From an uncultured Bacilli bacterium (GTDB lineage Bacteria > Bacillota_I > Bacilli_A > RF39 > UBA660): 58,253 nt of DNA. Location of the stretch: contig CANRME010000001.1 in the NCBI GenBank assembly GCA_947631655.1, positions 1 through 58,253 of the forward strand. Direction: 5' to 3'. Numbering within the stretch: position 1 is the stretch's first letter; each line of letters opens with the position of its first letter. A program made the position numbers and the translations under genes. Below the pieces are notes generated by a model. The model did not search any database. It was not told where the DNA came from and saw only the letters and a program-made list of their open reading frames with translations. Below, one piece after another: positions 6,508 through 22,376 of the stretch.

Positions 6508-6540
6508 AAAAAACGACGTTAAAGTCGTTTTATTTTTTTG
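6508..6540. terminator. Bidirectional hairpin terminator between the convergent cobB gene and the glycosylation operon
   Basis: Stem aaaacgac/gtcgtttt with A-run and T-run flanks. It overlaps the last codons of the 6519-8054 gene. Confidence 0.6.
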
Positions 6541-8054
6541 ATACATTCATTACATTTTTTTAAATATTTTAGTGATATTAAGGCACATCCAAAGAAATCT
6601 TTTAAAGCTAAATACCATTGTTCTTGTTTATAATACGCATTTGCTCTCTTAAGATGTTCTTTCAAATCTATATTAAATAAATAATTGATATGGTAACTAC
6701 CGTTTTTTATGCTAATATTTTCGTATATTTCGTTAAAGTAATAATTAGCTAAGTAGTAAAAATAACATTTATTTTTATTACTATTATCGATTTTAGTTAA
6801 CAGATCTTTACTATTAGTCCTTATAATTGAATCATATAAATTTTCTAGGTCATCCAAATTTAATTTTTTAGAATTAGGTAAATATAAATTAACAGCTTTT
6901 GCAAAATTACCTAAATAATAATAGTATCTGGCTTCTAATATAGAATTTTTAAAATGTATTTGATATTTTTTTATTTGTTTACTAACTTTTTTATTTGGAT
7001 ATTTTATTATTTTATTTAATATTCTTTTATTAAAATCTTGATTTAAATAATTTATTCTTGTACTATTTGATAAATACTTATTCATTCTATCTTCATTTTT
7101 TTTGCCATCCTCCCATTGACTTTTCATTCTAATAGGATGCTTTATATGACAACAAGTAGCCGATGGTACTGGTATAATCTTTACCCCATTTTCAATACAT
7201 AGAGATACAAAGGTAGTATCATCACATCCCCATCCAACTAAGAATTCCGCAAAACCACCAATTTTTTCAAAATTTTTCTTGCTAACAGCAAATAAAAAAC
7301 CATATACCATTCTGTATAATTGCCAAGAATCATACATACTAATTTTATTATTACTTACCCATAAGTTTTTCATACTAGACATTTTTTGTAACATATTAGT
7401 TTCACTCATCATATTATAAGTCCAACTTCCTCTAAAATCAGTTATAAATCGATTATCTAGCCAAAAACAAGGTTCCTTTTTATATATGAATTTTTTTAAA
7501 TCTCTTATTGGAGGAATATTTTCGATATCTTCTCTAAAGCCAAAAAATATTGTACTATCTAGATATTCTTGTTGTCTTTTTACAATTTCATCAATAGTAA
7601 AGGGAAATAATATAATATCTGAATCACAAAAAATGATTAAATCTCCTGAAGCATATTTGCACCCCATATTTATTCCTTGAGCTTTTCCTAAATGGTATTG
7701 TTTAATGTACATTAATTTAAAACTAAAATCCTCTTTTAAGATAAAATCTTCTGTAGTATCGGTACTTCCATCATCTACTACTATGACTTCTAATTTATTA
7801 TTAAAGTTATGACATAAATAAGTATTTTCAATTGATTTTAATGTATATAGTAATGTATTCCCAGAATTCCAAGTAGATATTACAATACTAACTCTATATT
7901 TGCATTCTTTTAAAGGAAAATTATTTATTGAATTATAGGGTTCTAAATTAAGAGATTCTTTAAATCTGTTTTTATATTCTTTTGCAATATCTTGATAATC
8001 GTTTATAAATTTTTTTATCTCAGGAGAAAAATTATCTTGAACTAATTTTCCCAT
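6519..8054 (-). CDS. Family 2 glycosyltransferase with a C-terminal helical-repeat (TPR-like) region
   Basis: VSIVISTWNSGNTL...VVDDGSTDTT and DSD motif. The C-terminal roughly 170 aa are rich in Y/N/K helical repeats. Confidence 0.8.
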   Translation of the reverse strand: MGKLVQDNFSPEIKKFINDYQDIAKEYKNRFKESLNLEPYNSINNFPLKECKYRVSIVISTWNSGNTLLYTLKSIENTYLCHNFNNKLEVIVVDDGSTDTTEDFILKEDFSFKLMYIKQYHLGKAQGINMGCKYASGDLIIFCDSDIILFPFTIDEIVKRQQEYLDSTIFFGFREDIENIPPIRDLKKFIYKKEPCFWLDNRFITDFRGSWTYNMMSETNMLQKMSSMKNLWVSNNKISMYDSWQLYRMVYGFLFAVSKKNFEKIGGFAEFLVGWGCDDTTFVSLCIENGVKIIPVPSATCCHIKHPIRMKSQWEDGKKNEDRMNKYLSNSTRINYLNQDFNKRILNKIIKYPNKKVSKQIKKYQIHFKNSILEARYYYYLGNFAKAVNLYLPNSKKLNLDDLENLYDSIIRTNSKDLLTKIDNSNKNKCYFYYLANYYFNEIYENISIKNGSYHINYLFNIDLKEHLKRANAYYKQEQWYLALKDFFGCALISLKYLKKCNECIKKIKRL

Positions 8055-8812
8055 TTAACTGTGCCCTCTATTGGATTGTCACTTTCATTAGAATATCCCC
8101 CTAAATAATATTTAACTGTTACTTCCTTATTAGTTAATACTTTAACATTATTTTGCATTAATAATTTCATCATTTTTTCATCCTCAGGATTACACTCATC
8201 ATAATCTTTTTGAGTATACTCACTTGGTATTTCTTTATTATTAAATAATTCTGCTCTAAGCAACCAGACATTTGTATCTACAGTATACCCAAATCTATCA
8301 TGCCAAATATTACTACCTCTTTTAACTACCCCTGCTTTAAGCATATCCTCATACATTTCTAATTTTTGTTTATGCGTTCTACCCCAAGGATATTCTTCTT
8401 TTAAATATGGTGTCCCATCTTTATATAAAACTTCTCTATAAGAATGTACCGCTTCACAATTTTCTTTTAATGCAAAATTATATAATTTTTCTAAATGCTC
8501 TGGATAAAATTCATTATCATCATCTAGAAATGAAAACCAGCCCTTTTTGACTTTATGAATAGCATATGTTCTAAGTTTAGCCAAAACATTTGGGCCACTT
8601 TTATCTTCTTTATTCCTTTTATAATACTCCCATTCTATCTTAGGATCGTTTTTATACTTTTCATTTAGCATCTTTAAAGTTTTAGAACAATCATCAATTA
8701 TTATTAAATGCTTTACATTTTTATATGTTTGTATTTGAACAGTTTTTATAGCTCTTTCTAACAAATTTGGACGATTTTTAGTAATCGTTATTACTGTTAT
8801 TAATTCATGCAT
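8042..8812 (-). CDS. Family 2 glycosyltransferase
   Basis: ITVITITKNRPNLLERAIKTVQIQTY...IIIDDCS and LDDDN motif. Overlaps both neighbouring genes. Confidence 0.75.
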   Translation of the reverse strand: MHELITVITITKNRPNLLERAIKTVQIQTYKNVKHLIIIDDCSKTLKMLNEKYKNDPKIEWEYYKRNKEDKSGPNVLAKLRTYAIHKVKKGWFSFLDDDNEFYPEHLEKLYNFALKENCEAVHSYREVLYKDGTPYLKEEYPWGRTHKQKLEMYEDMLKAGVVKRGSNIWHDRFGYTVDTNVWLLRAELFNNKEIPSEYTQKDYDECNPEDEKMMKLLMQNNVKVLTNKEVTVKYYLGGYSNESDNPIEGTVKWEN

Positions 8813-9500
8813 AATATTCTTCTACTCCTTTTAATTTATCCTGATAATAATCTAATATTTTATCTTCACTTCCAAAAAGCATATTTATTTGAGAAGTATA
8901 TTTACTCATAGCTAAAGCCTTTTTCATTAGAATATCTTTTGGTAATTTTATTACTTCTATTTTTTTATATTTTTTAGGAATTATTCCTTCATAAGAAAAA
9001 TCAACATAATATTTTACAATATAACCTTTTTCTTTTAAATATTGTCCTACTTTATTTACAATTATATGATCAACATGATTTCCAATTCCTAAAGGAAAAT
9101 ATAATTTATCTTTTTTAGTAACTAATTTAAGTAAATCATTGCTAATATCTAAATATAAATCTTGATCTGCCACATGAATTTCTTTAAATATTGATCCATC
9201 TATAGAATACATATGTTTCTTATTATAAATACGATATATAGCATCACAATATTTTAATGATACATTCTTAGCTTTTATTATGGTACAAGCATTTTTGTTT
9301 TCTTCTTTACGTTCTCTAAAAGGGTCTTTAATATCCCAATATTTATGTAGATCTTCGGCATAGTTAGAAAATGGCTCTTTTACTTCACTAAATATTGTAA
9401 TAATATGGGGATTTTTTTGAGCTAAATAATCTAAATATATTTTTCCGCCACAAGACCCAATAGCATCATCAAAATGAGGACTTATATAATAAACAGCCAT
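8805..9500 (-). CDS. PIG-L/LmbE-family N-acetylglucosaminyl deacetylase
   Basis: ISPHFDDAIGSCGG and HVDHIIV motifs. Confidence 0.8.
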   Translation of the reverse strand: MAVYYISPHFDDAIGSCGGKIYLDYLAQKNPHIITIFSEVKEPFSNYAEDLHKYWDIKDPFRERKEENKNACTIIKAKNVSLKYCDAIYRIYNKKHMYSIDGSIFKEIHVADQDLYLDISNDLLKLVTKKDKLYFPLGIGNHVDHIIVNKVGQYLKEKGYIVKYYVDFSYEGIIPKKYKKIEVIKLPKDILMKKALAMSKYTSQINMLFGSEDKILDYYQDKLKGVEEYYA

Positions 9501-9504
9501 TTTA

Positions 9505-10671
9505 TTATACTCCTAAAAATTTACTCATCTTGTTATAGTTAACATCAAATAAGTCATGATAAGCTAAAAAATTCCAAGCAACATCTTGATAAGCCCACAA
9601 CACAGCATCTTTTCCTTTAGAAATTATTATATCTTCATATTCTTGACATTTTTTTTGATTCCCTAGAAAAGCATAAGACAGATATAAATAATAATAGTGT
9701 TCTAAGGATTCTGGTTCTCTTTTTTTCCATTTTTCTCTTTCGCGTACAGATTTTAAGAGCAAATCTTTATAATCTTTATGTATCATTTTTAAATAAATAG
9801 CATATGAATAATCAACAGCAAAATGATGTTTTTTAGTTGTTTTATAAAGTTTTTCCCATTTCTTAAAATATTTTAATGCTTCTTTTTTATTCCCATTTAT
9901 TAAATATAATTCAGCTAATTTTCTGATGCTCCAAGCATCAGTATTACAATCTTTTATTGCTTCAATAAACATCTTTTCAGCAATTGAGTATTCCTTATTA
10001 TAAGCTAGTTTAAATGCTTCTTGAGGTTTTTTCCAAGATTCTAAATACATTATTTCCCCTCTATTGGGGGGGTGATTTAAGCCATAACCAAATATTAATA
10101 ATTTCTTATTAATATTCTTCCATTTAGTTTTTTCACAACATAGTTTAATATATTCACAATCTTGAACTACATTTTTATCTAAGGAAGCGTGAGGGAATTC
10201 AATAGACTTAGCAATTTCACTTCTTACCATAAATGCAGAATTATCACATCTTCCTAATTCAGGATACCCATCAATATTTTGATTATATCTTAAATCTTCT
10301 GCTCCACATAATACTAACCCTATACTTTTATCCTCTTCTAATACTTTAACCATTTCTTCCAAATAGTTTTCTTGATATATATTATCATCATCAAGAAAAC
10401 ATAGATATTCTCCTAAATCCAAATTCTTAATAGCCCATCTTAATAAAGGATTAGGAGTTCCATTAGGCATATTTGCTCCAGGTTCTTTTGCTCCTAAAGA
10501 AGAGGAAAAACCTAAGGTACTACGTTGTTTATTAGGATATTCAGTTGGCAAAATACCATCTCCCAATACAAAATGATGATAATCTTTATATGTTTGCTTA
10601 TCAACACTTTCACATGCTTGTTTAAGAGAATCGCGGTTTAATGTCACGGTGACAATACTTACTCTACTCAT
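9505..10671 (-). CDS. Family 2 glycosyltransferase with a C-terminal TPR domain
   Basis: VSIVTVTLNRDSL...DKQTYKDYHHFVLGDG and LDDDN, followed by TPR-like repeats (AEKMFIEAIK, LAELYLINGNKKEALKYFKK). The likely start is the ATG at 10671 (MSRVSIV). Confidence 0.8.
   Translation of the reverse strand: MSRVSIVTVTLNRDSLKQACESVDKQTYKDYHHFVLGDGILPTEYPNKQRSTLGFSSSLGAKEPGANMPNGTPNPLLRWAIKNLDLGEYLCFLDDDNIYQENYLEEMVKVLEEDKSIGLVLCGAEDLRYNQNIDGYPELGRCDNSAFMVRSEIAKSIEFPHASLDKNVVQDCEYIKLCCEKTKWKNINKKLLIFGYGLNHPPNRGEIMYLESWKKPQEAFKLAYNKEYSIAEKMFIEAIKDCNTDAWSIRKLAELYLINGNKKEALKYFKKWEKLYKTTKKHHFAVDYSYAIYLKMIHKDYKDLLLKSVREREKWKKREPESLEHYYYLYLSYAFLGNQKKCQEYEDIIISKGKDAVLWAYQDVAWNFLAYHDLFDVNYNKMSKFLGV
10066..10072. 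repeat. G7 homopolymer (C7 on the coding strand) inside the GT2-TPR gene
   Basis: ctattgggggggtgat, encoding HPPN. One of the two longest G/C runs I found by eye. Confidence 0.85.
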
Positions 10672-11779
10672 ATTTTTTCCTTTCATATAAATCATTAAAC
10701 AATTCAATATATTGCTCTGCAATTGAATCTAAATTATATTTATTCATAACATATTTCATATCACTTTTAACATTGTAATTATCTTTTCCTTTTATAATTA
10801 CCTTAATAGCTTCATCAACTGTTTTAACATTAAAATGTGCATTCCCAGGCGGTACTACCTCATTTAAAGCTCCAACTCCATAACTTATAACAGGAGTCCC
10901 TACACTTATGGAATTTAAAAGAGTTAACCCAAACGTTTCAGGTAATTTTGATAAAAATAAAGTAAATTCTCCTAATTTATAGTATAAAGGTAAATCATTG
11001 TAATCAATCCATTTATGAAAGACTACAAATTTTTCTAAATTATTATCTTTTACATATTTTTGCACTTCATTTATAAAATCTTTTTCTCGATTTAAGTTTA
11101 TTTCTTTAGCTTTAGGTGGTAAAGGTATTAATAATCTATATTTATTATCAATGGTTACTAGTTTTTTTAAGATTTCAATAGCTGTAAAATGACCTTTTTC
11201 AGGATCTGGACGATGAGGAAATAAAATATATTTATATGCACTATCATATGGGAAATATTTATTAATCTTTTTTTTATCTACTTGAGGATTTAAAAATATT
11301 TCATCAACATAACATGGTATTTGATAAACTTCATTTTTATTAATGTAATCAATTAATTGTTTTTTTACAAAATTTGTTAAAACTACCATTTTATTCCATT
11401 CACTTTGAAAAACACTCATTACCTCTCTTTCATAGCATAATGTATTTAAAGATAATAATTTTGGTTTATCAGATTTTATAGGAAAATTTCGGTCAATCAT
11501 CCATATAATATCAGCTTTTTTTTCTAATTTTTTTATAATTTTAAAATTATTATAAATATCTTTAGGATTTAAAAAATCTCTTTCCATATCTACTAATGAA
11601 TGATCAATACAGATATTTTTAGCAAATTCATAATCATTTCCATCAGGACAAACAATTTGAAATTTTATGTTTTTATTATTTTTTTCAATATATGTTATTA
11701 AATTTTTTAGCCAAACCTGTACCCCACCAGCTAGATGATTATCATACATTGGATAATATAAATATATTAATATGTTCAT
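10664..11779 (-). CDS. GT4-type (GT-B fold, family 1 Pfam) glycosyltransferase
   Basis: The C-terminal half carries an E-x-F-G-L...E-like signature (PETFGLTLLNSISVGTPVISYGVGALNEVV). The likely start is MNILIY at 11779, preceded by GGGAGTG. Confidence 0.8.
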   Translation of the reverse strand: MNILIYLYYPMYDNHLAGGVQVWLKNLITYIEKNNKNIKFQIVCPDGNDYEFAKNICIDHSLVDMERDFLNPKDIYNNFKIIKKLEKKADIIWMIDRNFPIKSDKPKLLSLNTLCYEREVMSVFQSEWNKMVVLTNFVKKQLIDYINKNEVYQIPCYVDEIFLNPQVDKKKINKYFPYDSAYKYILFPHRPDPEKGHFTAIEILKKLVTIDNKYRLLIPLPPKAKEINLNREKDFINEVQKYVKDNNLEKFVVFHKWIDYNDLPLYYKLGEFTLFLSKLPETFGLTLLNSISVGTPVISYGVGALNEVVPPGNAHFNVKTVDEAIKVIIKGKDNYNVKSDMKYVMNKYNLDSIAEQYIELFNDLYERKKYE

Positions 11780-11783
11780 CTTA

Positions 11784-13235
11784 TCACTCCCAATAACAAC
11801 TATCTTCAATTTTTTCTGCACCTTTTAAAGGCTTTTCGATAGGAAAAATCCAATTTTTATTCCAATATCTATTAACATTTAAACAAGTACAATATCTTTT
11901 AATTTTAATTCCCCACCAATTTGGTAAATAACTACATAATTCTATAGAACTTTTTCCAATATTTTTTATATAACTAGCTAATAAATATCCATAAGCTCCT
12001 GCTCCAATAAATGCTATATCAAAATCAATTTTTGAAATATCTTGTTCCATTTTAGCTAAAGATTCAAAAAACGAATCATATCCTTGATTATTACTTAGTT
12101 GAGTTTCCAAACATTGATAAGTTTTAATTTCCATCTTTGGATATTTATAATCATATAAATGATTTAATTTATTTTTCTGTATTTCGATACTTTTAGAATA
12201 GGGACTTATTATTAAAATTTTTTTATTTTCTAAAAATTTAAACCATTTATTTTGAAAAGGATTAGTTAATAAATTCCAATCATAGTTTAAACGTGGATTA
12301 GCTTGAATTTTATTTAATACCATAGCCAACCCCTCAGCTAATTCTTCTTTACCATAACATAGATTAAAATCACAGTTTTTTACGGCTTCAATATGCTGTC
12401 TAGCAAATTCTGAAACAGCATTTATATTATTATCTTTAGCAAAAAAACCAGATGTTTCAAACAGATATTTTAACCAAAATTCACTATAATTATCAATCAA
12501 TCCTGTTTGTTGTTGAATATATTGTTTTATTATCCATAACTCTGTATTACCTATTCTTGCCATCATAAATGGTTTGTTAGATTTTATATAATCACATATA
12601 TTATCCTCCGAACTATGCTCATATTTATTACAATAATCATATAAATCATAAATAGGTTTAACTGATTCATATAACCATTCATGAAAAACTTTCCAAAATG
12701 AATAATTATTAATAGATTCTCCTATATTACCTTCTACATATATTTTCATAGTTTTATTAGTTACCTTTATTTGAGATTCTTTTTTATATAACTCATCTTT
12801 TATTATATAGGGGATATTATATTTATTAAATAATATTTCTAAATAATATGCTAGTTCATTATATCCATATATAATAGCATTATTATACTTTTTTAATATA
12901 GTTTCTCTATTAGCAAAAGAAATTAAGTCATTTATTTTATTAAGAGCATCGTTTAAAAAATCATCATCATAACAAAATCCTATAATCGTATCATTAGAAA
13001 TTATTGGAATATATTCTAAATTAGTTGTATTTAATACCTTATGGCCCTCCATTAACCAATTATCTTTAGTTAAATAATCATAATTTATATTGTTACCTTG
13101 GCATATAAATCCTAAATAATGATTCCAATAATACAAAACCTTATATTTATCAGTACAAGAATCAATTGTTTTTAAATCTTTCTTATTTTTTATATTAATT
13201 ATTTCATAATTTCCTTTACAAATTCTTAAAGCCAT
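11784..13235 (-). CDS. Unknown 483 aa protein; possibly a GT-D/DUF1792-like glycosyltransferase
   Basis: MARIGNTELW and a C-terminal FIGAGAYGYLLASYIKNIGKSSIEL resemble the GT-D fold. AAGGAG precedes the ATG at 13235. Family assignment is weak. Confidence 0.45.
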   Translation of the reverse strand: MALRICKGNYEIINIKNKKDLKTIDSCTDKYKVLYYWNHYLGFICQGNNINYDYLTKDNWLMEGHKVLNTTNLEYIPIISNDTIIGFCYDDDFLNDALNKINDLISFANRETILKKYNNAIIYGYNELAYYLEILFNKYNIPYIIKDELYKKESQIKVTNKTMKIYVEGNIGESINNYSFWKVFHEWLYESVKPIYDLYDYCNKYEHSSEDNICDYIKSNKPFMMARIGNTELWIIKQYIQQQTGLIDNYSEFWLKYLFETSGFFAKDNNINAVSEFARQHIEAVKNCDFNLCYGKEELAEGLAMVLNKIQANPRLNYDWNLLTNPFQNKWFKFLENKKILIISPYSKSIEIQKNKLNHLYDYKYPKMEIKTYQCLETQLSNNQGYDSFFESLAKMEQDISKIDFDIAFIGAGAYGYLLASYIKNIGKSSIELCSYLPNWWGIKIKRYCTCLNVNRYWNKNWIFPIEKPLKGAEKIEDSCYWE

Positions 13236-14328
13236 TTTTCTTCTCCTTATAATATACCCAATCATCTAATTTATAATCATCTTTTCTTTGTTCCCATATA
13301 AAATATGGTAAATCATCACGATAATGAGCACAATAATTACATAGTTCAAAAGGTTCTTTTAACTTTTCTTTTATTTTCTTACCAGTAATATCATCATAAA
13401 TGTTTATTAATTTTCCTTTTTTAGCAAATTCTTGATTATATTTATCATTAAGATAATTAATGGTAAATGGTAAAGGACAGGGAGCTAAATATCCATTTTG
13501 CAAATTGATACAAACGCAGTTATTTAAAGTTTTATATGGATATTTCTGCTTTTTAGCTAATAATATTGGTTTAAACTTATTAATATGTTCTAGGAATACC
13601 TTAATACCTTTATTCTTTAAATTAATTACAATATCATCAATGGTATTATGTAAAGGAGGATATACAGATATATCCAAGATTACATTATTATTTTTTAAAC
13701 AATTAATCATATTATTATCAATACTCTTTAACAATAAACCATTAGTAACTACTCTTAAATCAGTATAGGGATAAATTTCACGAATCATTTTTATATATTT
13801 AGGTAATTCGGGATTTAAAAATGGTTCGCCCCCCATTATTCTTATTTTAAAAATATGAGGAATTAATTGTTTCATTCTTTTAAAATCTTTTTCATATTGT
13901 TTAAAACTTTTTATTTCTTTTGATGCAATATTAGCAAAATGACTACATCCTTTACAATTCATATTACAGCAATCAATAATATTAATTTCCAAATAATTTA
14001 AGTAAGTTACTTCTTCGAATTTAAAAAACTTCGTATAATCAAGTTCTTCTTTGCCTAAAATCATTTCAATAGGAATAAAGAATATTTTTTGATTATCAAA
14101 TCCTAAAGCAATTAAATTTTTATATACTTCTTCAATATTAATATCATCGGCTATGAATGATGGTATAAGAATATTTTCATTATTATATTCCTTCTTAAAT
14201 TTATAAACACTTATTACTCCGTTTTCTGCAAATTCGTTAGCATCAAAAGAAATAATTTTTTTAATCTTTAATCCTCTATCTACTAATTTTTGTTTAATAT
14301 TATCGCAAGATATTAATACATATTCCAT
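13216..14328 (-). CDS. Radical SAM enzyme (paralogue C, with a roughly 100 aa N-terminal extension)
   Basis: CNMNCKGCSHF (CxxxCxxC), GGEPFLNPEL, and a C-terminal CNYC pair. Confidence 0.8.
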   Translation of the reverse strand: MEYVLISCDNIKQKLVDRGLKIKKIISFDANEFAENGVISVYKFKKEYNNENILIPSFIADDINIEEVYKNLIALGFDNQKIFFIPIEMILGKEELDYTKFFKFEEVTYLNYLEINIIDCCNMNCKGCSHFANIASKEIKSFKQYEKDFKRMKQLIPHIFKIRIMGGEPFLNPELPKYIKMIREIYPYTDLRVVTNGLLLKSIDNNMINCLKNNNVILDISVYPPLHNTIDDIVINLKNKGIKVFLEHINKFKPILLAKKQKYPYKTLNNCVCINLQNGYLAPCPLPFTINYLNDKYNQEFAKKGKLINIYDDITGKKIKEKLKEPFELCNYCAHYRDDLPYFIWEQRKDDYKLDDWVYYKEKKNGFKNL

Positions 14329-14331
14329 AGC

Positions 14332-15249
14332 CTAAGTCCATTCTTTAATATCTTTTCTAGAACTTTCCCACTTTTGTTCATAATCTTTAACATCAGGATT
14401 GCAATAACGACAAAAAGGAGCTGGTTTACTTAAAAAATCAAAAATTTCTTCTTTGTTTTTAGCTTTATAAATATCAATATAATCATCTTTACAAACTTGT
14501 AAATCTTTTTTAAAGTACTTATTAAAATGTTCAATATTAGGAATTAATGTACAAGTATACAATTTACCTTCTTTAAGCATAACACATTCATTAGATAAGA
14601 AACACTTGTAAAAACTTTTTCGAGCATCTCTTTTTCCATCTTCTTGTAATTTTATATTATACCAAATTTGTTCTTTATCAGTATTATCATAAAATTCAAA
14701 ATTTACATGATATTTTAGAGCTTTCTTTTTCATTAAATCATAGTCTAACTTTAAAGGATATTTAGTTACAGATAATATTATATTATTATCATGTAAACAT
14801 TTCCAAAAATCTTCTTGCATGTCATTAACTAATATTCCGTTAGATATTACTCTTATTTCAGTTAATTCTTTATCAGGGAAACACTTTCTAGTTTCTTTTA
14901 TAAATTTACATATATCTTTATTAAGTAATGGTTCTCCACCCAATATGTGAATGGATTTTGCTTTACCTTCAAATAATGTTGACATTCTATTAATATCTTT
15001 TTTAAAGTCTGCAAAATTAGTAAATTTAGGGTTTGCTAAAGGAGAAAAGTGATCGCATCCTTTACAATTTAAATTACAATGATCGGTAGTATGATACTCA
15101 AAAGATATATATGGTCCCCGCATTTTGTGCATTGTTAAAACCGCAATATCTTCAACTTCCTTAGCCCAATAATTGCATTCTTTTTTTACTTTTCTTAACT
15201 CTTGTTCCATTTCATTTACTTTTTTTGTTAATTTTTCAATTTCTTCCAT
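14332..15249 (-). CDS. Radical SAM enzyme (paralogue B)
   Basis: CNLNCKGCDHF, GGEPLLNKD, and a C-terminal CRYC pair. Confidence 0.8.
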   Translation of the reverse strand: MEEIEKLTKKVNEMEQELRKVKKECNYWAKEVEDIAVLTMHKMRGPYISFEYHTTDHCNLNCKGCDHFSPLANPKFTNFADFKKDINRMSTLFEGKAKSIHILGGEPLLNKDICKFIKETRKCFPDKELTEIRVISNGILVNDMQEDFWKCLHDNNIILSVTKYPLKLDYDLMKKKALKYHVNFEFYDNTDKEQIWYNIKLQEDGKRDARKSFYKCFLSNECVMLKEGKLYTCTLIPNIEHFNKYFKKDLQVCKDDYIDIYKAKNKEEIFDFLSKPAPFCRYCNPDVKDYEQKWESSRKDIKEWT

Positions 15250-15252
15250 CTA

Positions 15253-16122
15253 TTACCACTCCATATCTTTAAATATTTCTTTATATAACTTTTCATTTGT
15301 TTTAAAATTTAAGGAATCAACAAATATTTTAAACTTATTTTTATCACATTTGCTTTTTTCGCTATTATTTAATATATCCATTAGGTAAAAACAGCTATAT
15401 TTTAAATGTTCTATTAATTTTTCAACCTCGGCTTTCCTAATTTGCTTTTCTAATCTTTCTTTAAACATCATCATACAACTTACTTGACTATCAAAATTGG
15501 TATGATCTTTTATATGGGTTAAAGTGCAATTATTATCTTTATCATGTCGTAACCAATTATATACATATTTATTAACAATTTTAATTTTAGGATCTTTTAA
15601 ATATAAATCTGCCAAAAATAAACGATCTTCTCCTTGAAATATTTCTACAAAGAAAATATTATTCTTAATTATAAAATCTTTTTTATACATTCTATTCCAT
15701 ACAGTCACTGATTCAAAAAAAGTATTAAATCTACAATCTGCAGGAGTTAGAAAGTTTTCAATTTTACCATCATCATATACTATTTTATAATTTCCAATAG
15801 CAATATCACAATCCTGTATATTATTTTGAAGTATTTCTAATGTATCTTTATTTATTGTATCATCACCATCAACAAAGAATATATATTCTCCCTTAGCTAA
15901 AGAAATACCAAAGTTTCTTGCAGAACCAGGCCCTCTTCTTAATTGCTTATAAACCTTTATTCTGCTATCATGTATTTCCCTGATTTTTTCAATTGTCCTA
16001 TCTGTACTACCATCATCAATTATAATAATTTCAAAATTCTGATAAGTGCTAGTAATTATACTTTTTAGGCAACTCTCAATATACTTTTCAACATTATAAG
16101 TGGGTATAATTACACTAATCAT
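15253..16122 (-). CDS. Family 2 glycosyltransferase
   Basis: ISVIIPTYNVEKYIESCLKSI...IIIDDGSTDRT and VDGDD motifs. RBS GGAGGAG. Confidence 0.85.
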   Translation of the reverse strand: MISVIIPTYNVEKYIESCLKSIITSTYQNFEIIIIDDGSTDRTIEKIREIHDSRIKVYKQLRRGPGSARNFGISLAKGEYIFFVDGDDTINKDTLEILQNNIQDCDIAIGNYKIVYDDGKIENFLTPADCRFNTFFESVTVWNRMYKKDFIIKNNIFFVEIFQGEDRLFLADLYLKDPKIKIVNKYVYNWLRHDKDNNCTLTHIKDHTNFDSQVSCMMMFKERLEKQIRKAEVEKLIEHLKYSCFYLMDILNNSEKSKCDKNKFKIFVDSLNFKTNEKLYKEIFKDMEW

Positions 16123-17005
16123 TTTCTCCTCCTAGAGATTTTATTACTTCTTCTATTGAGGTTATATTAGCATATTTATTCAAGATTGTTATTAATTTAT
16201 TCAGAAAACTATAACTTTCTTCTCCCATTCGTTCATGATGAAGTAATATTCCTATATTAGAAGAATCATTTTCTAGTTCATTTATTATTTGGTTTAAAAC
16301 AAATTCCTCACCTCCAAAAGTATATGCTATATCCCAATCTACTAAATCAACTTGGCAATTTGCTTCTATTAGATTAAATTCATTTATATGATTCCCCCAA
16401 TAATTAGACATGGCTACAAAATTTTCCCGTTTAATAATTTTTTGGAATTTCTTATCTATTTCAAACCAAGGAGGAATAAAAACATTTATAAATTTATTTC
16501 CAAAAAGATCTTTGAGTTTATCTCTTCCTCTAATAATTTCAGATTTTACTAATTCTTCATTTCTATTTTCGGGGTATTCCGATTGTTCTTCTTTTGAATA
16601 ATTATTATGGGAATATCCATGCTGACCAATGCGTATATTACTATATTTTTTTAACTTAATAGCTAGATTATCATCAGTTTCTTTAGGTATAGCTGCAATT
16701 AATATGTTAATATTTAAATTATTCATAAATTCTATTAAATGTATTAAACTACAATTATCTACTCCAGCATCATCATCGCGAAACCAGAAATTTACTTTTT
16801 TGACTTTTAATAGATTAATTAGTGTTTCCCATTTATCTGAATCTTCGTAATAAGGTTCAATTTTAACCTCTAAATCATTATTATTTATTTGAACTGCTAC
16901 TTTTTTTAAATAAGGATTATTTACTTGATTCAAATACTCATCAATTAAACTTTCTACTTTCTCTAAAGAAATAGCAGTCATATCATAATTATTAAATCTA
17001 TTCAT
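16115..17005 (-). CDS. Polysaccharide-deacetylase-like (NodB/DUF2334-like) protein
   Basis: WFRDDDAG, GQHGYSH and LLHHERM motifs. Confidence 0.55.
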   Translation of the reverse strand: MNRFNNYDMTAISLEKVESLIDEYLNQVNNPYLKKVAVQINNNDLEVKIEPYYEDSDKWETLINLLKVKKVNFWFRDDDAGVDNCSLIHLIEFMNNLNINILIAAIPKETDDNLAIKLKKYSNIRIGQHGYSHNNYSKEEQSEYPENRNEELVKSEIIRGRDKLKDLFGNKFINVFIPPWFEIDKKFQKIIKRENFVAMSNYWGNHINEFNLIEANCQVDLVDWDIAYTFGGEEFVLNQIINELENDSSNIGILLHHERMGEESYSFLNKLITILNKYANITSIEEVIKSLGGEND

Positions 17006-17014
17006 ATTTACTCC

Positions 17015-18673
17015 TTAATTTAATTTAGTTATTTCAGGACGATAATAGCCAAATTTATAATTAGCGATTTTTTCATTTACTTTTTCGTTTAAATAAGCAT
17101 CTAAATTTTCTATTTCAATATTATTTTCATTAAAATATTTTAATAGAGGATTAATTATTTCTTTTTCAATTATCTCATTTTCTATTGGAGGAAGTTTTAT
17201 AATTATATTAGGATTAAATTTTTGCGTATTACGTAATATGGTATTTATCTGCTTTAACATTTCTTCATAGGAATTGTAAATTATTTCTTCATATTCAACA
17301 ACAATATAACCATTTGAAGTAATGTGATATCTTTTATCATAATATTCGATTCTTTCTAAAGTAAAACTTTGATCATTATATATTATTAACTTATCATACT
17401 TACTATAATTTTTATAATTAAAATCTTCCATATTAATTACAGGAATTTTATTTAAAAAAACTACACTATCTTTTTTATTTAAAAAATCTATATTATAATC
17501 TTTATACTTTTTAGAATTTTGCTGTTCGTTTGATAAGTTATTAAATGCTAGTCTTATTGTCATAGGTTTTAGTTTATTTACAATAGTACTATATATTTCT
17601 TCAGCAACTTTTTGAGTATTATTTTGCACTTTTTCTTTTGTTCTAATATTGGTTTTAAGCAACTTTATAACTTTGTTATCAAAATTATCTAATTTATTAA
17701 CATCTAAATAATCAACTCCATAAACTCGCTTTAATTCTTCACACCATTGTAATTGATCTTCCATATAAGATATCCCGGGTAAAAGTAATATATTTTCTCT
17801 TCCTGAAAGAGATTCCATAGTAGAATTATATCCCGGTCTTAATATACACAAATCAACAACTTGAAATAAAGCATCTAAATTAGTTTCAAAATCAACTATT
17901 TTTATATTATCATTAATTATATAAGATTGTAAATGTTCTTCTAAATATTTACTATAAGGACCTAAAACTAGTATTGTTTGGACATTTAATCCTTTTTTTA
18001 CTAATTTATTTGTCATAATAATAGCTTTTTTAAATATTTCATCACAAATATTATTACCTATATGCCATCCGCCAGCTCCACAATTAACAACTATATTTTT
18101 ATCATATTTATCAATATTATATTTCTTTATTATTTCGTCTTTTACTTCCTTTGATGGTTCGTTAAATACACCACTTAAATATTTTATTTTTTCTGAATAA
18201 TTAACAAAATTTCTTACTTCTCTTGAAGTTATATCATTAAGAAAGCATTCTTTATCCTTTAAAACAATTAATTTTTCATATTGGTTTAGTACACCATTAT
18301 AATAATAATTTTCAAACTCTGAACTACTTAATCTATTTAAAATTAATATTTTAGAAACATTTAATAAAGCTGGTAAATTTAAATAAAAATCTTCAGGATA
18401 TGTATCTTCAATTATTACATCCGGTTTTATGTTTTCAATTAACTTGTTTAACAATTTGTTCATAATTAATATTTCATTATTAGATTTTAAAGTATATAAC
18501 ATAGGGAAATTATAGACTTTATAATTGTAGTTATTAAATATTTCAGTAGATTTTGCTTGAGTAATAAATGAGATTTCTGCATTGTTATTTAAATATTTTG
18601 ATATTGTAAGAGCCAGTTTAAAATGACCAAAACCAATTCCATTTTGAAGCATAAATACAATTTTCTTTTTCAC
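17015..18673 (-). CDS. GT-B-fold glycosyltransferase-like protein (MurG/GT28-like N-terminus) with an unknown C-terminal roughly 170 aa
   Basis: The N-terminus FMLQNGIGFGHFKLALTISKYL resembles a glycine-rich GT-B loop. AGGTGG precedes the GTG at 18673. Confidence 0.5.
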   Translation of the reverse strand: MKKKIVFMLQNGIGFGHFKLALTISKYLNNNAEISFITQAKSTEIFNNYNYKVYNFPMLYTLKSNNEILIMNKLLNKLIENIKPDVIIEDTYPEDFYLNLPALLNVSKILILNRLSSSEFENYYYNGVLNQYEKLIVLKDKECFLNDITSREVRNFVNYSEKIKYLSGVFNEPSKEVKDEIIKKYNIDKYDKNIVVNCGAGGWHIGNNICDEIFKKAIIMTNKLVKKGLNVQTILVLGPYSKYLEEHLQSYIINDNIKIVDFETNLDALFQVVDLCILRPGYNSTMESLSGRENILLLPGISYMEDQLQWCEELKRVYGVDYLDVNKLDNFDNKVIKLLKTNIRTKEKVQNNTQKVAEEIYSTIVNKLKPMTIRLAFNNLSNEQQNSKKYKDYNIDFLNKKDSVVFLNKIPVINMEDFNYKNYSKYDKLIIYNDQSFTLERIEYYDKRYHITSNGYIVVEYEEIIYNSYEEMLKQINTILRNTQKFNPNIIIKLPPIENEIIEKEIINPLLKYFNENNIEIENLDAYLNEKVNEKIANYKFGYYRPEITKLN

Positions 18674-18682
18674 CTGAACCAC

Positions 18683-19474
18683 CTATTTTTCTAAAAATGC
18701 TTGTTTTATAATATTAGAAATATCTATTTTAGTATTTTCATTAATTTTATTAGAAATATATACTAAGTATTCAATATTCCCATCTCCTCCTTTTATAGGA
18801 GAATAAGTCATATTTTTGATATAAAACCCATAACTATTAAAAGTATTAATTAAATCTTTTATTATACTTAAATGAACTTGTTTATTTAATATAATACCTT
18901 TGTACAAATCCGCTATTTCTTTTCCACATTCAAATTGAGGTTTTATAAGACAAACAATATCGATTTTAATACTTTCATTATATATTTTTTCTATTATCTT
19001 TTTTAATGATATAAAAGAAACATCACAAGTTATAATATCTAAATTTTCAAAATATTTATGTTCTAAATTACGAAAATTAGTTTTTTCATATAATTCTATT
19101 TTAGGATTATTTCTTAAAGATTTATGTAATAAGTCAGTTCCAACATCTATAGCTATAATGTGTTTGGCACCATTTTGCAAAGCACAATCACAAAAACCGC
19201 CGGTTGATGAACCAATATCCATTACATACAAGGATTTTAAATCAATGCCAAATTCCTTAATAGCTTTTTCAAGTTTTAATCCCCCACGAGACACATATTT
19301 AAAAATATCATTAGCAATTATTTCAATTGTATCTTCCTTATTAACAACAAAATTGCTTTTCATTATAATTTTATTATTACATTTGACATATCCTTTTTTA
19401 ATTAATTCTTGAGCTTTTGCTCTCGATGGAGCCATTTTTCTTCTAACTAATTCTTTATCAATCCTATTTTCCAT
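18683..19474 (-). CDS. tlyA: TlyA-family 16S/23S rRNA (cytidine-2'-O)-methyltransferase
   Basis: S4 RNA-binding N-terminus plus an FtsJ-like domain (YVSRGGLKLEKAI, MDIGSSTGGFCDCAL, DVSFISL). Confidence 0.9.
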   Translation of the reverse strand: MENRIDKELVRRKMAPSRAKAQELIKKGYVKCNNKIIMKSNFVVNKEDTIEIIANDIFKYVSRGGLKLEKAIKEFGIDLKSLYVMDIGSSTGGFCDCALQNGAKHIIAIDVGTDLLHKSLRNNPKIELYEKTNFRNLEHKYFENLDIITCDVSFISLKKIIEKIYNESIKIDIVCLIKPQFECGKEIADLYKGIILNKQVHLSIIKDLINTFNSYGFYIKNMTYSPIKGGDGNIEYLVYISNKINENTKIDISNIIKQAFLEK

Positions 19475-19482
19475 ACTAACTC

Positions 19483-20514
19483 CTAAAAAGTTCTTGATAC
19501 AACTTCTACTGTTTGGTTTAATTCTTTTTGTAATTCAAAATTTTTAGTCCATATTTGAACTACAACGTCGGTACCTTTTCTATTTAATTTTTTTGAAAAG
19601 ATCATATTACTATTTAATTCATTTGCAAAATATTTTATTATTTGTTCACTTTGCTTTTCACCACACATTAGAACAATAATCCCTTTATCGTTCAAATTAG
19701 GATATATATTTTTCATAGCCTTAACAATTTTTTCAGTCGCATTTTGGCTAAAAGGAACCTCTGTAACTATAGCATCATAACTATCCGTTAAATGCACTTC
19801 AGAAGCATCTCCCACAATATGCTTAGAACCATAATATTCTAGACCTGGCTTTAATGTTGAATCAATATCAATACTAGTTATGTCGATATTTGGGTTAATA
19901 TATTTATACATATATACTATACCGCCACCACCAGCAAATGGTTCAATTACTTTTTTCTCTTGAAAAGGCATTGACAAATTTACTAAGCATCTTGCATCTT
20001 CTACTGGTAGTGCTCTTCTTCCAAGTTCACTACCATCTCCTCTATATCCAATTATTTCTTTTTCATTACCATCTTGGGATACAATTTTAAATGGACGATT
20101 ATGAGGAGATTGGGTTTCATATAATTCTTGACTTTGAATATAAAGATTTTTTAAAGAAAATTTTAGACCTTTCCACACTAAAGGATTAATTGTTTTTAAA
20201 TTTGTTTTATTAATTGGAGTAGTTATATCAAAATCTAACTCATAAAATTCATCAAAATAGCCAATATAAGATAAACGACTAACTGCCTTATCCCAATTTT
20301 GCTTTTTTATAAAAAATGATACTAGACCTTTAATGTCTCCTAAAGGACCATTTTTTATAAATAAAACATCTAGATCATACATACTCATTAAAAATTCCAT
20401 AATTCCTAATTGTTTTGATTTAACTCTAGAATTTCTTAACTTACAACAAATAACATTATAATCTAAAACATAATTTTTTAAACTTACTCCATCTACTTCA
20501 ATAAATCTATCCAT
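19483..20514 (-). CDS. SAM-dependent methyltransferase, UPF0020/Trm11-like
   Basis: ALPVEDARCLVNLS...VIEPFAGGGGI...DAIVTEVPF. GAGGTG precedes the ATG at 20514. Confidence 0.6.
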   Translation of the reverse strand: MDRFIEVDGVSLKNYVLDYNVICCKLRNSRVKSKQLGIMEFLMSMYDLDVLFIKNGPLGDIKGLVSFFIKKQNWDKAVSRLSYIGYFDEFYELDFDITTPINKTNLKTINPLVWKGLKFSLKNLYIQSQELYETQSPHNRPFKIVSQDGNEKEIIGYRGDGSELGRRALPVEDARCLVNLSMPFQEKKVIEPFAGGGGIVYMYKYINPNIDITSIDIDSTLKPGLEYYGSKHIVGDASEVHLTDSYDAIVTEVPFSQNATEKIVKAMKNIYPNLNDKGIIVLMCGEKQSEQIIKYFANELNSNMIFSKKLNRKGTDVVVQIWTKNFELQKELNQTVEVVSRTF

Positions 20515-20526
20515 CTTACACCTCAT

Positions 20527-21396
20527 TTATATTTCTATAACTTTTTTTACTGTTCTTAAGTCTCCAATATCATTGTTTTGGCATTCTTCTAAAAAATCTT
20601 TATCTAACAGTTCTTCTATTGGAGTATTTGCATATTCCATATATTTATCTTTATTAACTTGCTCAATTAGAAACTGTTTACCAACTGTTCCTAGACAATA
20701 TTTACATGCTTCAAGACATTGTGAATTATTTAAATAATTATTAAGTTTTTTTTCAAAATAAACGTCATCAGTTATCTTTAAGCCATTAATTTCAAATGAT
20801 TGTCCTTTAATATTTTTAGATAAAGCCATCGCTTCTGGACATTTAAAAATATAGTTTTCATAAACGTTATAACATTGCCATTTATTTGCAACAATACAAG
20901 TTTTATATATTTTTTGAACAAGTTCTAAATCATTATTTTTCTGATAAGAATAAGGTTCTCTAAAGTATTGATACATATATATAATAATTTTTATTTTATA
21001 TTTTTCTTTGACTTTTTGAGACCACTCATATATTTTTTTACTTTTTTCTAAAGAATAATTATAATTAGATATCTCAATCATATCGAGATTTTTCAATACA
21101 TCATCACTAATTTTTTCTAATGATACTCCATTAGTCGGTAAAGATATTTCATCAGCAATTCCTATTTTTTTAATTTCTTCAGCTATTTTAGCTAAGTCAG
21201 GATTTAATGTTGGTTCGCCACCTAATAATCTAATAACTTTACAATGCAAACTTTTTTTTAATAAGTTTAAACTTTGTATAGTTTTATTGATATCCATAAA
21301 ACATTTCTTTTCTAGTGGTGTTAAATGACTGCATCCCCTACAAGATAAATTGCAATGATTTGAAACATGTATTTCTAAACTTTCTACAACAATCAT
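20527..21396 (-). CDS. Radical SAM enzyme (paralogue A)
   Basis: CNLSCRGCSHL, GGEPTLNPDL, and a C-terminal CKYC pair. AAGGAG precedes the ATG at 21396. Confidence 0.8.
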   Translation of the reverse strand: MIVVESLEIHVSNHCNLSCRGCSHLTPLEKKCFMDINKTIQSLNLLKKSLHCKVIRLLGGEPTLNPDLAKIAEEIKKIGIADEISLPTNGVSLEKISDDVLKNLDMIEISNYNYSLEKSKKIYEWSQKVKEKYKIKIIIYMYQYFREPYSYQKNNDLELVQKIYKTCIVANKWQCYNVYENYIFKCPEAMALSKNIKGQSFEINGLKITDDVYFEKKLNNYLNNSQCLEACKYCLGTVGKQFLIEQVNKDKYMEYANTPIEELLDKDFLEECQNNDIGDLRTVKKVIEI

Positions 21397-21416
21397 ATTA
21401 TTCTCCTTCAATTTAC

Positions 21417-22376
21417 TTATTTTTTTGCGTTTATTTTACTTTTAAAATATTTTATTGTTTGTTTTATACCTTCTTCATAAGAAACTTGTGGAATCCAATC
21501 TAATAACCCTTTAGCTTTGGCAATATTAGGTTTTCTTCTTTGAGGATCATCACTCATTTTTGCCATATAAACTATACTAGATTTAGTACTTAATAAATTT
21601 TTTATATACACTGCCACTTCTTCTATAGTTTTTTCCTGAGGATTTCCAATATTAATTGGACCATTACTTTTTTTAGCTAAATTCATATATTTATATATCG
21701 CATCGATTGTATCATCGACAAAACAGAAACTTCTTGTTTGTTTCCCACTACCATATATTGTTATTGGTTCATTATTTAAGCCTTGGGTAATAAAATTAGA
21801 GATTATTCTTCCATCTTCGGTACTCATTCCTGGTCCATATGTATTAAACAACCTGGCTACTCTTACATCTACATCATATTTTCTTATATAATCATAAATT
21901 AATGATTCTGCAGCTCTTTTACCTTCGTCATAACAGGATCTTACTCCTATTGGATTAACATTCCCCCAATATTCTTCATTTTGGGGAGATTCTAATGCAT
22001 CCCCATATACCTCAGAAGTAGAAGAATGAAAAAGTTTCCGTTTTGTTCCTTTAATTGAATCAAGCAAATTTTTTATTCCTATAACACTAGCTTCCCATGT
22101 TTCAATAGGATGATCCAAATAATATTTAGGAGATGCGGGACAAGCAAAATTATATATTTCATCAATATCCAATTCGTTTATAACATTAATAATTTTATTA
22201 TCACATATATCCATTTCAATAAAGTTTACTTTTTTTCCAAGATAAGCTTCAATGTTTTCCTTATTACTAGTACTTAGATTATCAATTACATAGATAGTAT
22301 CATTAGTTTCTTTTAATATTTTTTTTACCATATTACTACCTAAAAATCCACATCCACCAGTTATTAGTATTCTCAT
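21417..22376 (-). CDS. uxs: UDP-glucuronate decarboxylase (UDP-xylose synthase), SDR family
   Basis: ILITGGCGFLGSN, STSEVYGD, CYDEGKRAAESL, RLFNTYGP. Confidence 0.9.
   Translation of the reverse strand: MRILITGGCGFLGSNMVKKILKETNDTIYVIDNLSTSNKENIEAYLGKKVNFIEMDICDNKIINVINELDIDEIYNFACPASPKYYLDHPIETWEASVIGIKNLLDSIKGTKRKLFHSSTSEVYGDALESPQNEEYWGNVNPIGVRSCYDEGKRAAESLIYDYIRKYDVDVRVARLFNTYGPGMSTEDGRIISNFITQGLNNEPITIYGSGKQTRSFCFVDDTIDAIYKYMNLAKKSNGPINIGNPQEKTIEEVAVYIKNLLSTKSSIVYMAKMSDDPQRRKPNIAKAKGLLDWIPQVSYEEGIKQTIKYFKSKINAKK

Follow-up and report, generated by a model that had tools for sequence, protein, structure and literature searches.

Three paralogous twitch radical SAM proteins, candidate carbohydrate epimerases, in a glycosylation operon of an uncultured gut Bacilli bacterium

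The DNA considered here (the window) is the 58,253 nucleotide (nt) stretch that forms positions 1 to 58,253 of the forward strand of contig CANRME010000001.1, in assembly GCA_947631655.1 of an uncultured Bacilli bacterium. It encodes, within a single glycan operon, three proteins of the radical S-adenosylmethionine (SAM) superfamily, which are termed rSAM-A, rSAM-B and rSAM-C below (Table 1). A sequence-only reading of the window had described them as small paralogous enzymes sharing a cluster motif, a GGEP motif and a C-terminal CxYC pair; the three open reading frames (ORFs), their motifs and their coordinates are borne out by the ORF list and by exact translation. The cluster motifs so obtained are CNLSCRGC in A, CNLNCKGC in B and CNMNCKGC in C. 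The SAM-binding motifs GGEPTLN, GGEPLLN and GGEPFLN, respectively, lie 37–39 residues beyond the third cysteine, where a distance of about 35–45 residues had been given, and the C-terminal pairs are CKYC, CRYC and CNYC. Two of the genes had been called adjacent, and one had been credited with an extra N-terminal domain of about 100 residues; rSAM-B and rSAM-C are indeed separated by 3 nt, and the added domain of rSAM-C covers about 105 residues. For rSAM-A, the ATG at 21396 is preferred as the start over the alternative TTG at 21411, because GGAG stands 8 nt upstream of the ATG.

Table 1. Coordinates of the radical SAM genes, their cysteine motifs and the associated genes in the window.
Feature	Position	Strand	Description
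rSAM-A	20527..21396	(-)	289 aa; SpeY/HygY-family twitch radical SAM enzyme
rSAM-A CX3CX2C (C15, C19, C22)	21331..21354	(-)	SAM-binding [4Fe-4S] motif; invariant in A-type alignment
rSAM-A Cys175	20872..20874	(-)	Switch position; aligns with SpeY chain Ser203
rSAM-A twitch region C167-C234	20695..20898	(-)	Putative auxiliary ligands C167, C186, C231, C234
rSAM-B	14332..15249	(-)	305 aa; from a twitch radical SAM family that is very large and uncharacterised
rSAM-B CX3CX2C (C58, C62, C65)	15055..15078	(-)	Invariant in B-type alignment
rSAM-B Cys222	14584..14586	(-)	Switch position; at least 90% conserved in B-type alignment; aligns with SpeY chain Ser203
rSAM-B twitch region	14401..14604	(-)	Hairpin C216-x11-G228-x4-C233, then C280-x2-C283; four putative ligands
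rSAM-C	13216..14328	(-)	370 aa; twitch radical SAM enzyme with added N-terminal domain
rSAM-C N-terminal Rossmann-like alpha/beta domain	14014..14328	(-)	Residues 1 to ~105; PglD_N / CapD-N-like
rSAM-C CX3CX2C (C121, C125, C128)	13945..13968	(-)	Invariant in C-type alignment
rSAM-C Cys273	13510..13512	(-)	Switch position; majority residue in C-type alignment; aligns with SpeY chain Ser203
rSAM-C twitch region	13330..13518	(-)	Putative auxiliary ligands C271, C284, C330, C333
15-gene operon	6519..22376	(-)	ORFs, Pfam and NCBIfam domains; gaps of at most 20 nt
UXS (UDP-glucuronate decarboxylase)	21417..22376	(-)	First operon gene, 20 nt upstream of rSAM-A
GT2 glycosyltransferase	15253..16122	(-)	3 nt upstream of rSAM-B; Pfam PF00535, E 4e-36

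All three proteins score above the cut-off for PF04055 (Radical_SAM; 42.1, 35.9 and 37.8 bits against 29.5), and this domain and PF13353 (Fer4_12) are their sole matches in a Pfam scan. The motifs characteristic of the superfamily are present in each. AlphaFold models were made for B and C only (pLDDT 93.4 and 90.9), and in both of these the partial barrel is visible; rSAM-A was placed by sequence. The scan of all three proteins found no B12-binding domain (PF02310), which rules out a class B (cobalamin-dependent) radical SAM methylase, in agreement with what had been proposed. The paralogy of the three is far above chance: B and C share 30% identity across 267 residues (E 1e-29), A and B 36% across 105 residues (E 2e-17), and A and C 32% across 96 residues (E 2e-15). 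The BLAST alignments of A span its N-terminal ~100 residues only, but the C-terminal cysteines still align in the multiple alignment. No family member beyond A, B and C was found in the host genome, which has 1.23 Mb and is 64% complete.

A maximum-likelihood tree built from 88 homologues resolves two clades, A-type (support 100/100) and B-type (100/99), and places the C-type sequences as a diverse grade around the second of these. Because the tree separates the two clades and the grade in this way, A, B and C are ancient paralogues that represent three deep subfamilies, and not local or recent duplicates. The arrangement of all three together is confined to a lineage of uncultured gut ‘Bacilli’ metagenome-assembled genomes (MAGs; L009-L011 and L030, at 71–77% identity); across 78 genome loci with a family match, one member is present in 69 and two in 6. 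The B-type family is very large, in that a profile search of 1.84 billion representatives gave 2,109 clusters, defined at 50% identity, at E ≤ 1e-30, with a range that takes in Bacteroidota, Clostridia, Melainabacteria, Spirochaetes, Synergistetes, Campylobacterota and others. Two of its members (P0330 and P0331, of 698 and 685 aa) carry two B-type radical SAM modules in a single chain.

The N-terminal parts of B and C differ from each other. Residues 2–41 of rSAM-B (15127-15249, minus strand) are modelled by AlphaFold as a single long, confident helix ahead of the radical SAM core, a helix that B-type relatives of other phyla replace by short basic N-termini or by extensions of 100 aa or of a GT2 domain. 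The N-terminal domain of rSAM-C has an alternating beta-alpha pattern in its model. This domain itself has no match in Pfam, and its link to PglD_N and to the structure 3nkl is made through relatives and profile only: two relatives (P0316 and P0283) match PglD_N above the cut-off, and the C-type profile matches 3nkl, a 141-aa fragment of UDP-D-quinovosamine 4-dehydrogenase, with E 1.3e-4. Because of these matches, the domain again ties the protein to nucleotide-sugar enzymology.

Beyond the three cysteines of the SAM cluster, four further C-terminal cysteines are invariant in each of the three subfamily alignments, which were drawn from diverse homologues (28 B-type, 37 C-type and 34 A-type sequences). 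The first two flank a beta-hairpin of the form Cx(n)Gx4C, namely C216-x11-G-x4-C233 in B, C271-x7-G-x4-C284 in C and C167-x12-N-x4-C186 in A, and the last two are the CxYC pair. A Cx9-15Gx4C beta-hairpin motif was reportedly set out for SPASM and twitch proteins by Grell et al. in 2015. The twitch domain is defined by three or four conserved cysteines that bind one extra [4Fe-4S] cluster (PMC9477430). The four invariant cysteines and the hairpin of A, B and C are the sequence features of that domain, and the four residues are thus predicted from the alignments to be the ligands of one auxiliary [4Fe-4S] cluster per protein. The suggestion that the CxYC pair forms part of an auxiliary site therefore holds, as one half of a conserved twitch set. 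When both signatures were looked for, the twitch pattern was found and the SPASM pattern was not: where SPASM proteins have seven or eight conserved cysteines and PF13186, these have five conserved C-terminal cysteines only and no PF13186 match.

The closest known structure to the models of B and C is that of SpeY, which is labelled in the Protein Data Bank (PDB; 7WZV, 7WZX and 7X0B) as a ‘Twitch Radical SAM Dehydrogenase’. It is ranked first by Foldseek against the PDB for both, with E 3.5e-14, a template-modelling (TM) score of 0.61–0.65 and 269 aligned columns for B, and E 1.6e-14 and a target-normalised TM score of 0.69 for C; overall, the two models match SpeY with TM scores of 0.56–0.69 over 255–274 aligned columns. 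The next matches (BtrN, MoaA, viperins, anSME and peptide maturases) are weaker than SpeY by at least seven orders of magnitude. By single-sequence phmmer search, residues 5–279 of rSAM-A match residues 34–307 of SpeY chain 7wzv with E 2.5e-43, and the twitch regions of the two align without gaps. Single-sequence matches of B and C to SpeY reach E 2e-8 and cover the N-terminal half only. The corresponding profile searches gave E 5.5e-88 for the A-type, 6.2e-25 for the B-type and 1.5e-24 for the C-type profile. Judged by these matches, rSAM-A is a true member of the SpeY/HygY family. The likeness of rSAM-B and rSAM-C to SpeY consists of distant profile and fold matches only, and they are therefore placed as related but distinct subfamilies, not as SpeY/HygY members. 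A named NCBIfam family for any of the three was rejected, as only weak matches to the core were obtained, none of them anywhere near its cut-off (MoaA, viperin, HxsC, Tes and others).

A fifth conserved cysteine lies 11 residues before the second hairpin cysteine in A, B and C, at what we shall call the switch position. It is invariant in the A-type alignment, and among all the homologues collected it is kept by 67/72 of the A type, 101/115 of the B type and 101/113 of the C type. In the gap-free alignment of rSAM-A with SpeY, ‘TCIVANKWQC’ stands opposite ‘TCKLAHFWNS’, so that SpeY has serine where the window protein has cysteine. According to a study of SpeY (JACS 2022), Ser183 reportedly faces SAM across the substrate, and its replacement by cysteine is said to make SpeY an epimerase; conversely, a study of HygY (JACS 2021) reportedly found that the change Cys183Ala turns that epimerase into a dehydrogenase. 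By alignment, all three window proteins are in the HygY-like (cysteine) state. At about 5 of 84 loci the residue is instead threonine, serine, methionine, arginine or leucine. Other phyla also have B-type radical SAM genes in tandem (L062:8923-10756; also L056, L064 and L024), and in the L062 pair one copy has cysteine and the other serine at the switch; this is possibly an epimerase/dehydrogenase pair.

We favour, at somewhat better than even confidence, the view that the three are twitch radical SAM enzymes of the SpeY/HygY/BtrN type that act as epimerases, inverting secondary-alcohol carbons of a carbohydrate. The reduced SAM cluster would cleave SAM, and the resulting 5′-deoxyadenosyl radical would take the carbinol hydrogen of a sugar residue. 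The switch cysteine (C175 in A, C222 in B and C273 in C), on the opposite face, would then give back a hydrogen to yield the inverted centre and hence the epimer, and the thiyl radical so formed would be re-reduced through the auxiliary (twitch) cluster. The outcome would be rare sugars made without oxygen or NAD. The wider proposal of the sequence-only reading, that radical chemistry is carried out on carbohydrate, gains support from the kinship to SpeY and BtrN, the glycan loci and the GT2 fusions described below. As for the reactions that it listed, epimerisation is the one now favoured, and dehydration and C–C bond formation are less so.

Alternatively, the proteins might be dehydrogenases like BtrN and SpeY, which oxidise the carbinol carbons of sugars or cyclitols. 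A sugar hydroxyl would then be oxidised to the ketone, the auxiliary cluster would accept the electron, and further operon enzymes would reduce or rearrange the keto-sugar or use it in some other way. Both of the nearest solved relatives are dehydrogenases, the fold and auxiliary cluster are identical for the two outcomes, and the loci without the switch cysteine imply that both may occur in the family. Against this, cysteine is found where SpeY has serine in all three proteins and in about 90% of homologues. Nor does the operon encode an aminotransferase or any obvious keto-reductase besides UXS, as judged from its domain scans. It was also asked whether homologues without the switch cysteine co-occur with DegT aminotransferases; DegT-like genes are present in only 2/80 loci, and 0/12 of the flagged members lie there, so that no association emerged; several of the apparent cases of a missing cysteine were misregistrations of the pattern match. 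We regard a dehydrogenase as possible but rather unlikely, and an epimerase is clearly preferred to it because the switch cysteine is kept and the chemical logic is like that of EpeE.

It should be noted that several observations weigh against the epimerase assignment. The nearest solved structure, that of SpeY, belongs to a dehydrogenase rather than an epimerase; B and C share only about 20% identity with SpeY, and no B- or C-type member is known to have been characterised biochemically. The switch role reported for SpeY Ser183 and HygY Cys183 carries over to residue 203 of the SpeY chain only if this is native residue 183, which assumes a tag of 20 residues. There are also the few homologues that do not have the switch cysteine. 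In rSAM-A, the hairpin glycine that most A-type relatives possess is replaced by asparagine. Finally, no acceptor, export or initiating gene was found in the operon (in a genome that is incomplete, as already stated).

Other radical chemistry on sugars has also to be considered, for example dehydration or deoxygenation, C–C bond formation, decarboxylation of the kind ascribed to BlsE or sulfur insertion like that of AbmM. BlsE and AbmM are indeed among the weaker structural and profile matches, B and C are far from every characterised enzyme, and the outcome of radical SAM reactions is hard to predict by sequence. These matches are, however, many orders weaker than that to SpeY and mostly cover the core barrel only, and the conserved five-cysteine pattern fits the epimerase/dehydrogenase group; such chemistry appears improbable.

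The family is closely associated with glycosyltransferases, and its B-type members, in anaerobes of many phyla, are almost always located in glycan loci. Among 130 neighbours adjoining family genes in 75 loci, there are 21 GT2, 6 GT1, 4 GT8 and 4 TupA ATP-grasp genes. One B-type homologue lies in a Bacteroidales-like ABC-transporter glycan locus and another, between GT2 and GT1 genes, in a pgl/LOS (lipooligosaccharide)-like locus of the Campylobacteraceae; an A-type homologue in Paenibacillus is found among kinase, DegT, GT14-like, GT2, GT4 and GT1 genes. On a Paenibacillus sp. contig (L089:8243-11100), a cysteine-bearing, SpeY-like A-type gene has an APH-type kinase and DegT as its neighbours, with GT2, GT4, GT1 and an MFS transporter beyond them, a layout resembling that of an aminoglycoside-like or amino-sugar glycan cluster. 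A fixed partner of B-type genes besides GT2 was sought and rejected: outside the lineage only GT2 (24 loci) and SDR (7 loci) recur among the operon genes.

Gene fusions provide a further link. Among the best 150 of the 2,109 B-type profile matches, 28 are at least 550 aa in length. Ten of these long proteins were scanned: eight proved to be fusions of the GT2::rSAM form, and a ninth has the domain DUF6716, which is putatively a glycosyltransferase. The GT2 of the window matches the N-terminal halves of two of the fusions (P0334 and P0339) with 32–33% identity over nearly its full length (E 8e-31 and 1e-35), and by these alignments the GT2 and rSAM-B of the window are the split form of a recurrent GT2::rSAM fusion. 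Since fused homologues recur, this constitutes Rosetta-stone evidence that the two proteins share a task.

The same family-wide context bears on whether the three might be peptide or protein maturases, of the kind that acts on ribosomally synthesized and post-translationally modified peptides or of the anSME kind, that merely happen to be located in a glycan operon. SPASM and twitch enzymes are often peptide maturases, anSME, SuiB, SkfB, CteB and EpeE are among the weaker fold matches, and a SPASM domain is found in 3/130 of the neighbours. That context, of glycosyltransferases and GT2 fusions, is nevertheless not one of peptide maturation, and the gaps of at most 20 nt in the operon leave no space for a precursor gene. 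There is no RRE/PqqD domain or second auxiliary cluster, and the scores for maturase models of NCBIfam fall well short of what they require (PapB, for example, 30.8 bits against 340). The sequence-only reading had named a functionally characterised subgroup unrelated to sugars, such as peptide maturases with a nearby precursor, or a loss of the auxiliary cysteines across homologues, as findings that would tell against it; no maturase context was found and the cysteines are conserved. A maturase is barely credible here, and it is as epimerases acting on carbohydrate that we consider the proteins in relation to the other genes of the operon.

The operon runs in the order UXS, rSAM-A, a Trm11/RlmL-like methyltransferase, TlyA, a GT28/PseG-like protein, a DUF2334/deacetylase, GT2, rSAM-B, rSAM-C, a GT-D-like protein, a GT4-like protein, GT2-TPR, a PIG-L deacetylase, a GT2-like protein and a second GT2-TPR. 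Packing is tight, with intergenic gaps of 20 nt at most and several genes overlapping. For three ORFs, those of the GT-D-like, GT4-like and GT2-TPR proteins, the listed start lies 38–59 nt inside the gene before it (13216-13265, 11784-11821 and 10664-10722, minus strand), and translation probably begins further downstream. UXS matches human UXS1 (4gll and 2b69) with E about 1e-91 by phmmer. Three of the related gut ‘Bacilli’ MAGs (L009-L011) retain the full gene set, and the fourth (L030) has part of it. In L030 (G001, the ‘complete’ genome CP091726.1, at ~1151658-1159853), many in-frame stops and shifts of frame interrupt TlyA and each of the radical SAM genes of the orthologous operon; long-read assembly error is a more likely cause of these than pseudogenisation. 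A search of the host genome, at its 64% completeness, found no UGDH, flagellin or Bac_transf; UGDH is found ~8 kb from the operon in a relative, as a fragment in the case of CP091726.1.

The ORFs and domain scans of the operon reveal no flippase, polymerase, initiating phosphoglycosyltransferase, ligase or exporter. Together with the genome-wide search for Bac_transf, this is in keeping with a different type of product, namely a diffusible, ribosome-targeting oligosaccharide or nucleoside-sugar, with the three enzymes as late tailoring epimerases, much as in aminoglycoside and orthosomycin clusters, and the RNA methyltransferases protecting the producer’s own ribosome. TlyA, an rRNA 2′-O-methyltransferase that scores above its NCBIfam subfamily cut-off, and the Trm11/RlmL-like methyltransferase are embedded within the operon (18683-20526, minus strand) and are kept with it in the related MAGs. 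The characterised relatives of rSAM-A come solely from antibiotic pathways, and the avilamycin cluster is said to join UXS, a radical SAM epimerase and rRNA methylases. Against a diffusible product, the operon scans found no exporter or resistance-pump genes and no inositol or aminocyclitol, aminotransferase or polyketide synthase genes, with GT2, GT4, GT-D and GT28-like proteins, deacetylases and UXS present instead, though the genome is incomplete. A second copy of TlyA, which would favour self-resistance, was sought in this genome and in two relatives and none was found; because it is the sole copy in all three, TlyA is probably a housekeeping gene, which may have been captured by the operon. 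The TPR-bearing GT2 proteins, moreover, better suit the glycosylation of protein or cell wall. We consider a diffusible product quite improbable.

For epimerases in such an operon, the substrate is more likely to be a glycosyltransferase product than a free nucleotide-sugar, a preference based on analogy with HygY, SpeY, NeoN and AviX12 and on the GT2 fusions. The three paralogues would invert different centres or residues in a xylose-related glycan or glycoconjugate made by the seven glycosyltransferases of the operon. rSAM-B would be paired with the GT2 encoded immediately upstream, and would most likely edit the residue just attached by it, which would set the timing of the reaction after transfer. 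As rSAM-A directly follows UXS, a pentose is a reasonable, if speculative, first candidate for its substrate.

The kind of enzyme concerned, a twitch radical SAM carbohydrate epimerase or dehydrogenase, is already known. To our knowledge, radical SAM epimerases and dehydrogenases of sugars have so far been characterised solely in antibiotic pathways of actinomycetes and bacilli, and a search of the accessible literature found no characterised twitch radical SAM enzyme of the SpeY/HygY type from a glycan locus. What appears to be new is that a gut anaerobe has such an enzyme three times over within one glycosylation operon, that the B-type family is so large and is coupled to GT2, and that an epimerase-type cysteine is conserved in uncharacterised subfamilies. 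If inversion does take place after or with glycosyl transfer, anaerobes would gain a general oxygen- and NAD-independent route to the rare sugars of surface glycans, which shape serotype, phage receptors and immune recognition. The switch cysteine also leads to a direct prediction, that its replacement by alanine or serine would make the epimerase a dehydrogenase.

Amongst known systems, SpeY shares most with the window proteins: the CX3CX2C and GGEP motifs, HLSPL after the cluster, the hairpin cysteine pair, the C-terminal CxxC and ‘LGxVGK’. It differs in having serine where A, B and C all have cysteine, and in its substrate and setting, an aminocyclitol glycoside and the spectinomycin cluster of an actinomycete, as against a glycosyltransferase operon in a gut Bacilli MAG. 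The aminoglycoside/aminocyclitol context that would be expected of the SpeY/HygY family is not found at the window operon. HygY, the twitch radical SAM 2′-epimerase of hygromycin B biosynthesis and a homologue of SpeY, has the switch cysteine, which gives back a hydrogen atom to form the epimer, in common with A, B and C; the relation is indirect, being drawn by alignment through SpeY, and its aminoglycoside substrate sets it apart. EpeE/YydG, a twitch radical SAM epimerase of peptides (8AI1 and related structures), has the chemical logic in common but differs in its substrate, and its fold match is weak (E about 1e-4 to 1e-5).

BtrN, the 2-deoxy-scyllo-inosamine dehydrogenase of butirosin biosynthesis (4M7T), is the second-best distinct fold match for rSAM-B (E 3.3e-7, TM score 0.47–0.57, 14–16% identity). 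Its fold is of the twitch type, its single auxiliary cluster is ligated entirely by cysteine, and its cysteine spacing, of two cysteines and then CxxC, is similar to that of the window proteins. Unlike the enzymes of the window, whose operon encodes no aminotransferase, it is paired with one as a dehydrogenase. BtrN has been termed a radical SAM dehydrogenase (PMC13707489). In the classification of SFLD and RadicalSAM.org, subgroup 18, ‘spectinomycin biosynthesis’, is part of Megacluster-1-1 (SPASM/twitch) (PMC9477430). This subgroup should be the home of SpeY-like sequences such as rSAM-A, and rSAM-B and rSAM-C may belong in other, unnamed clusters of Megacluster-1-1.

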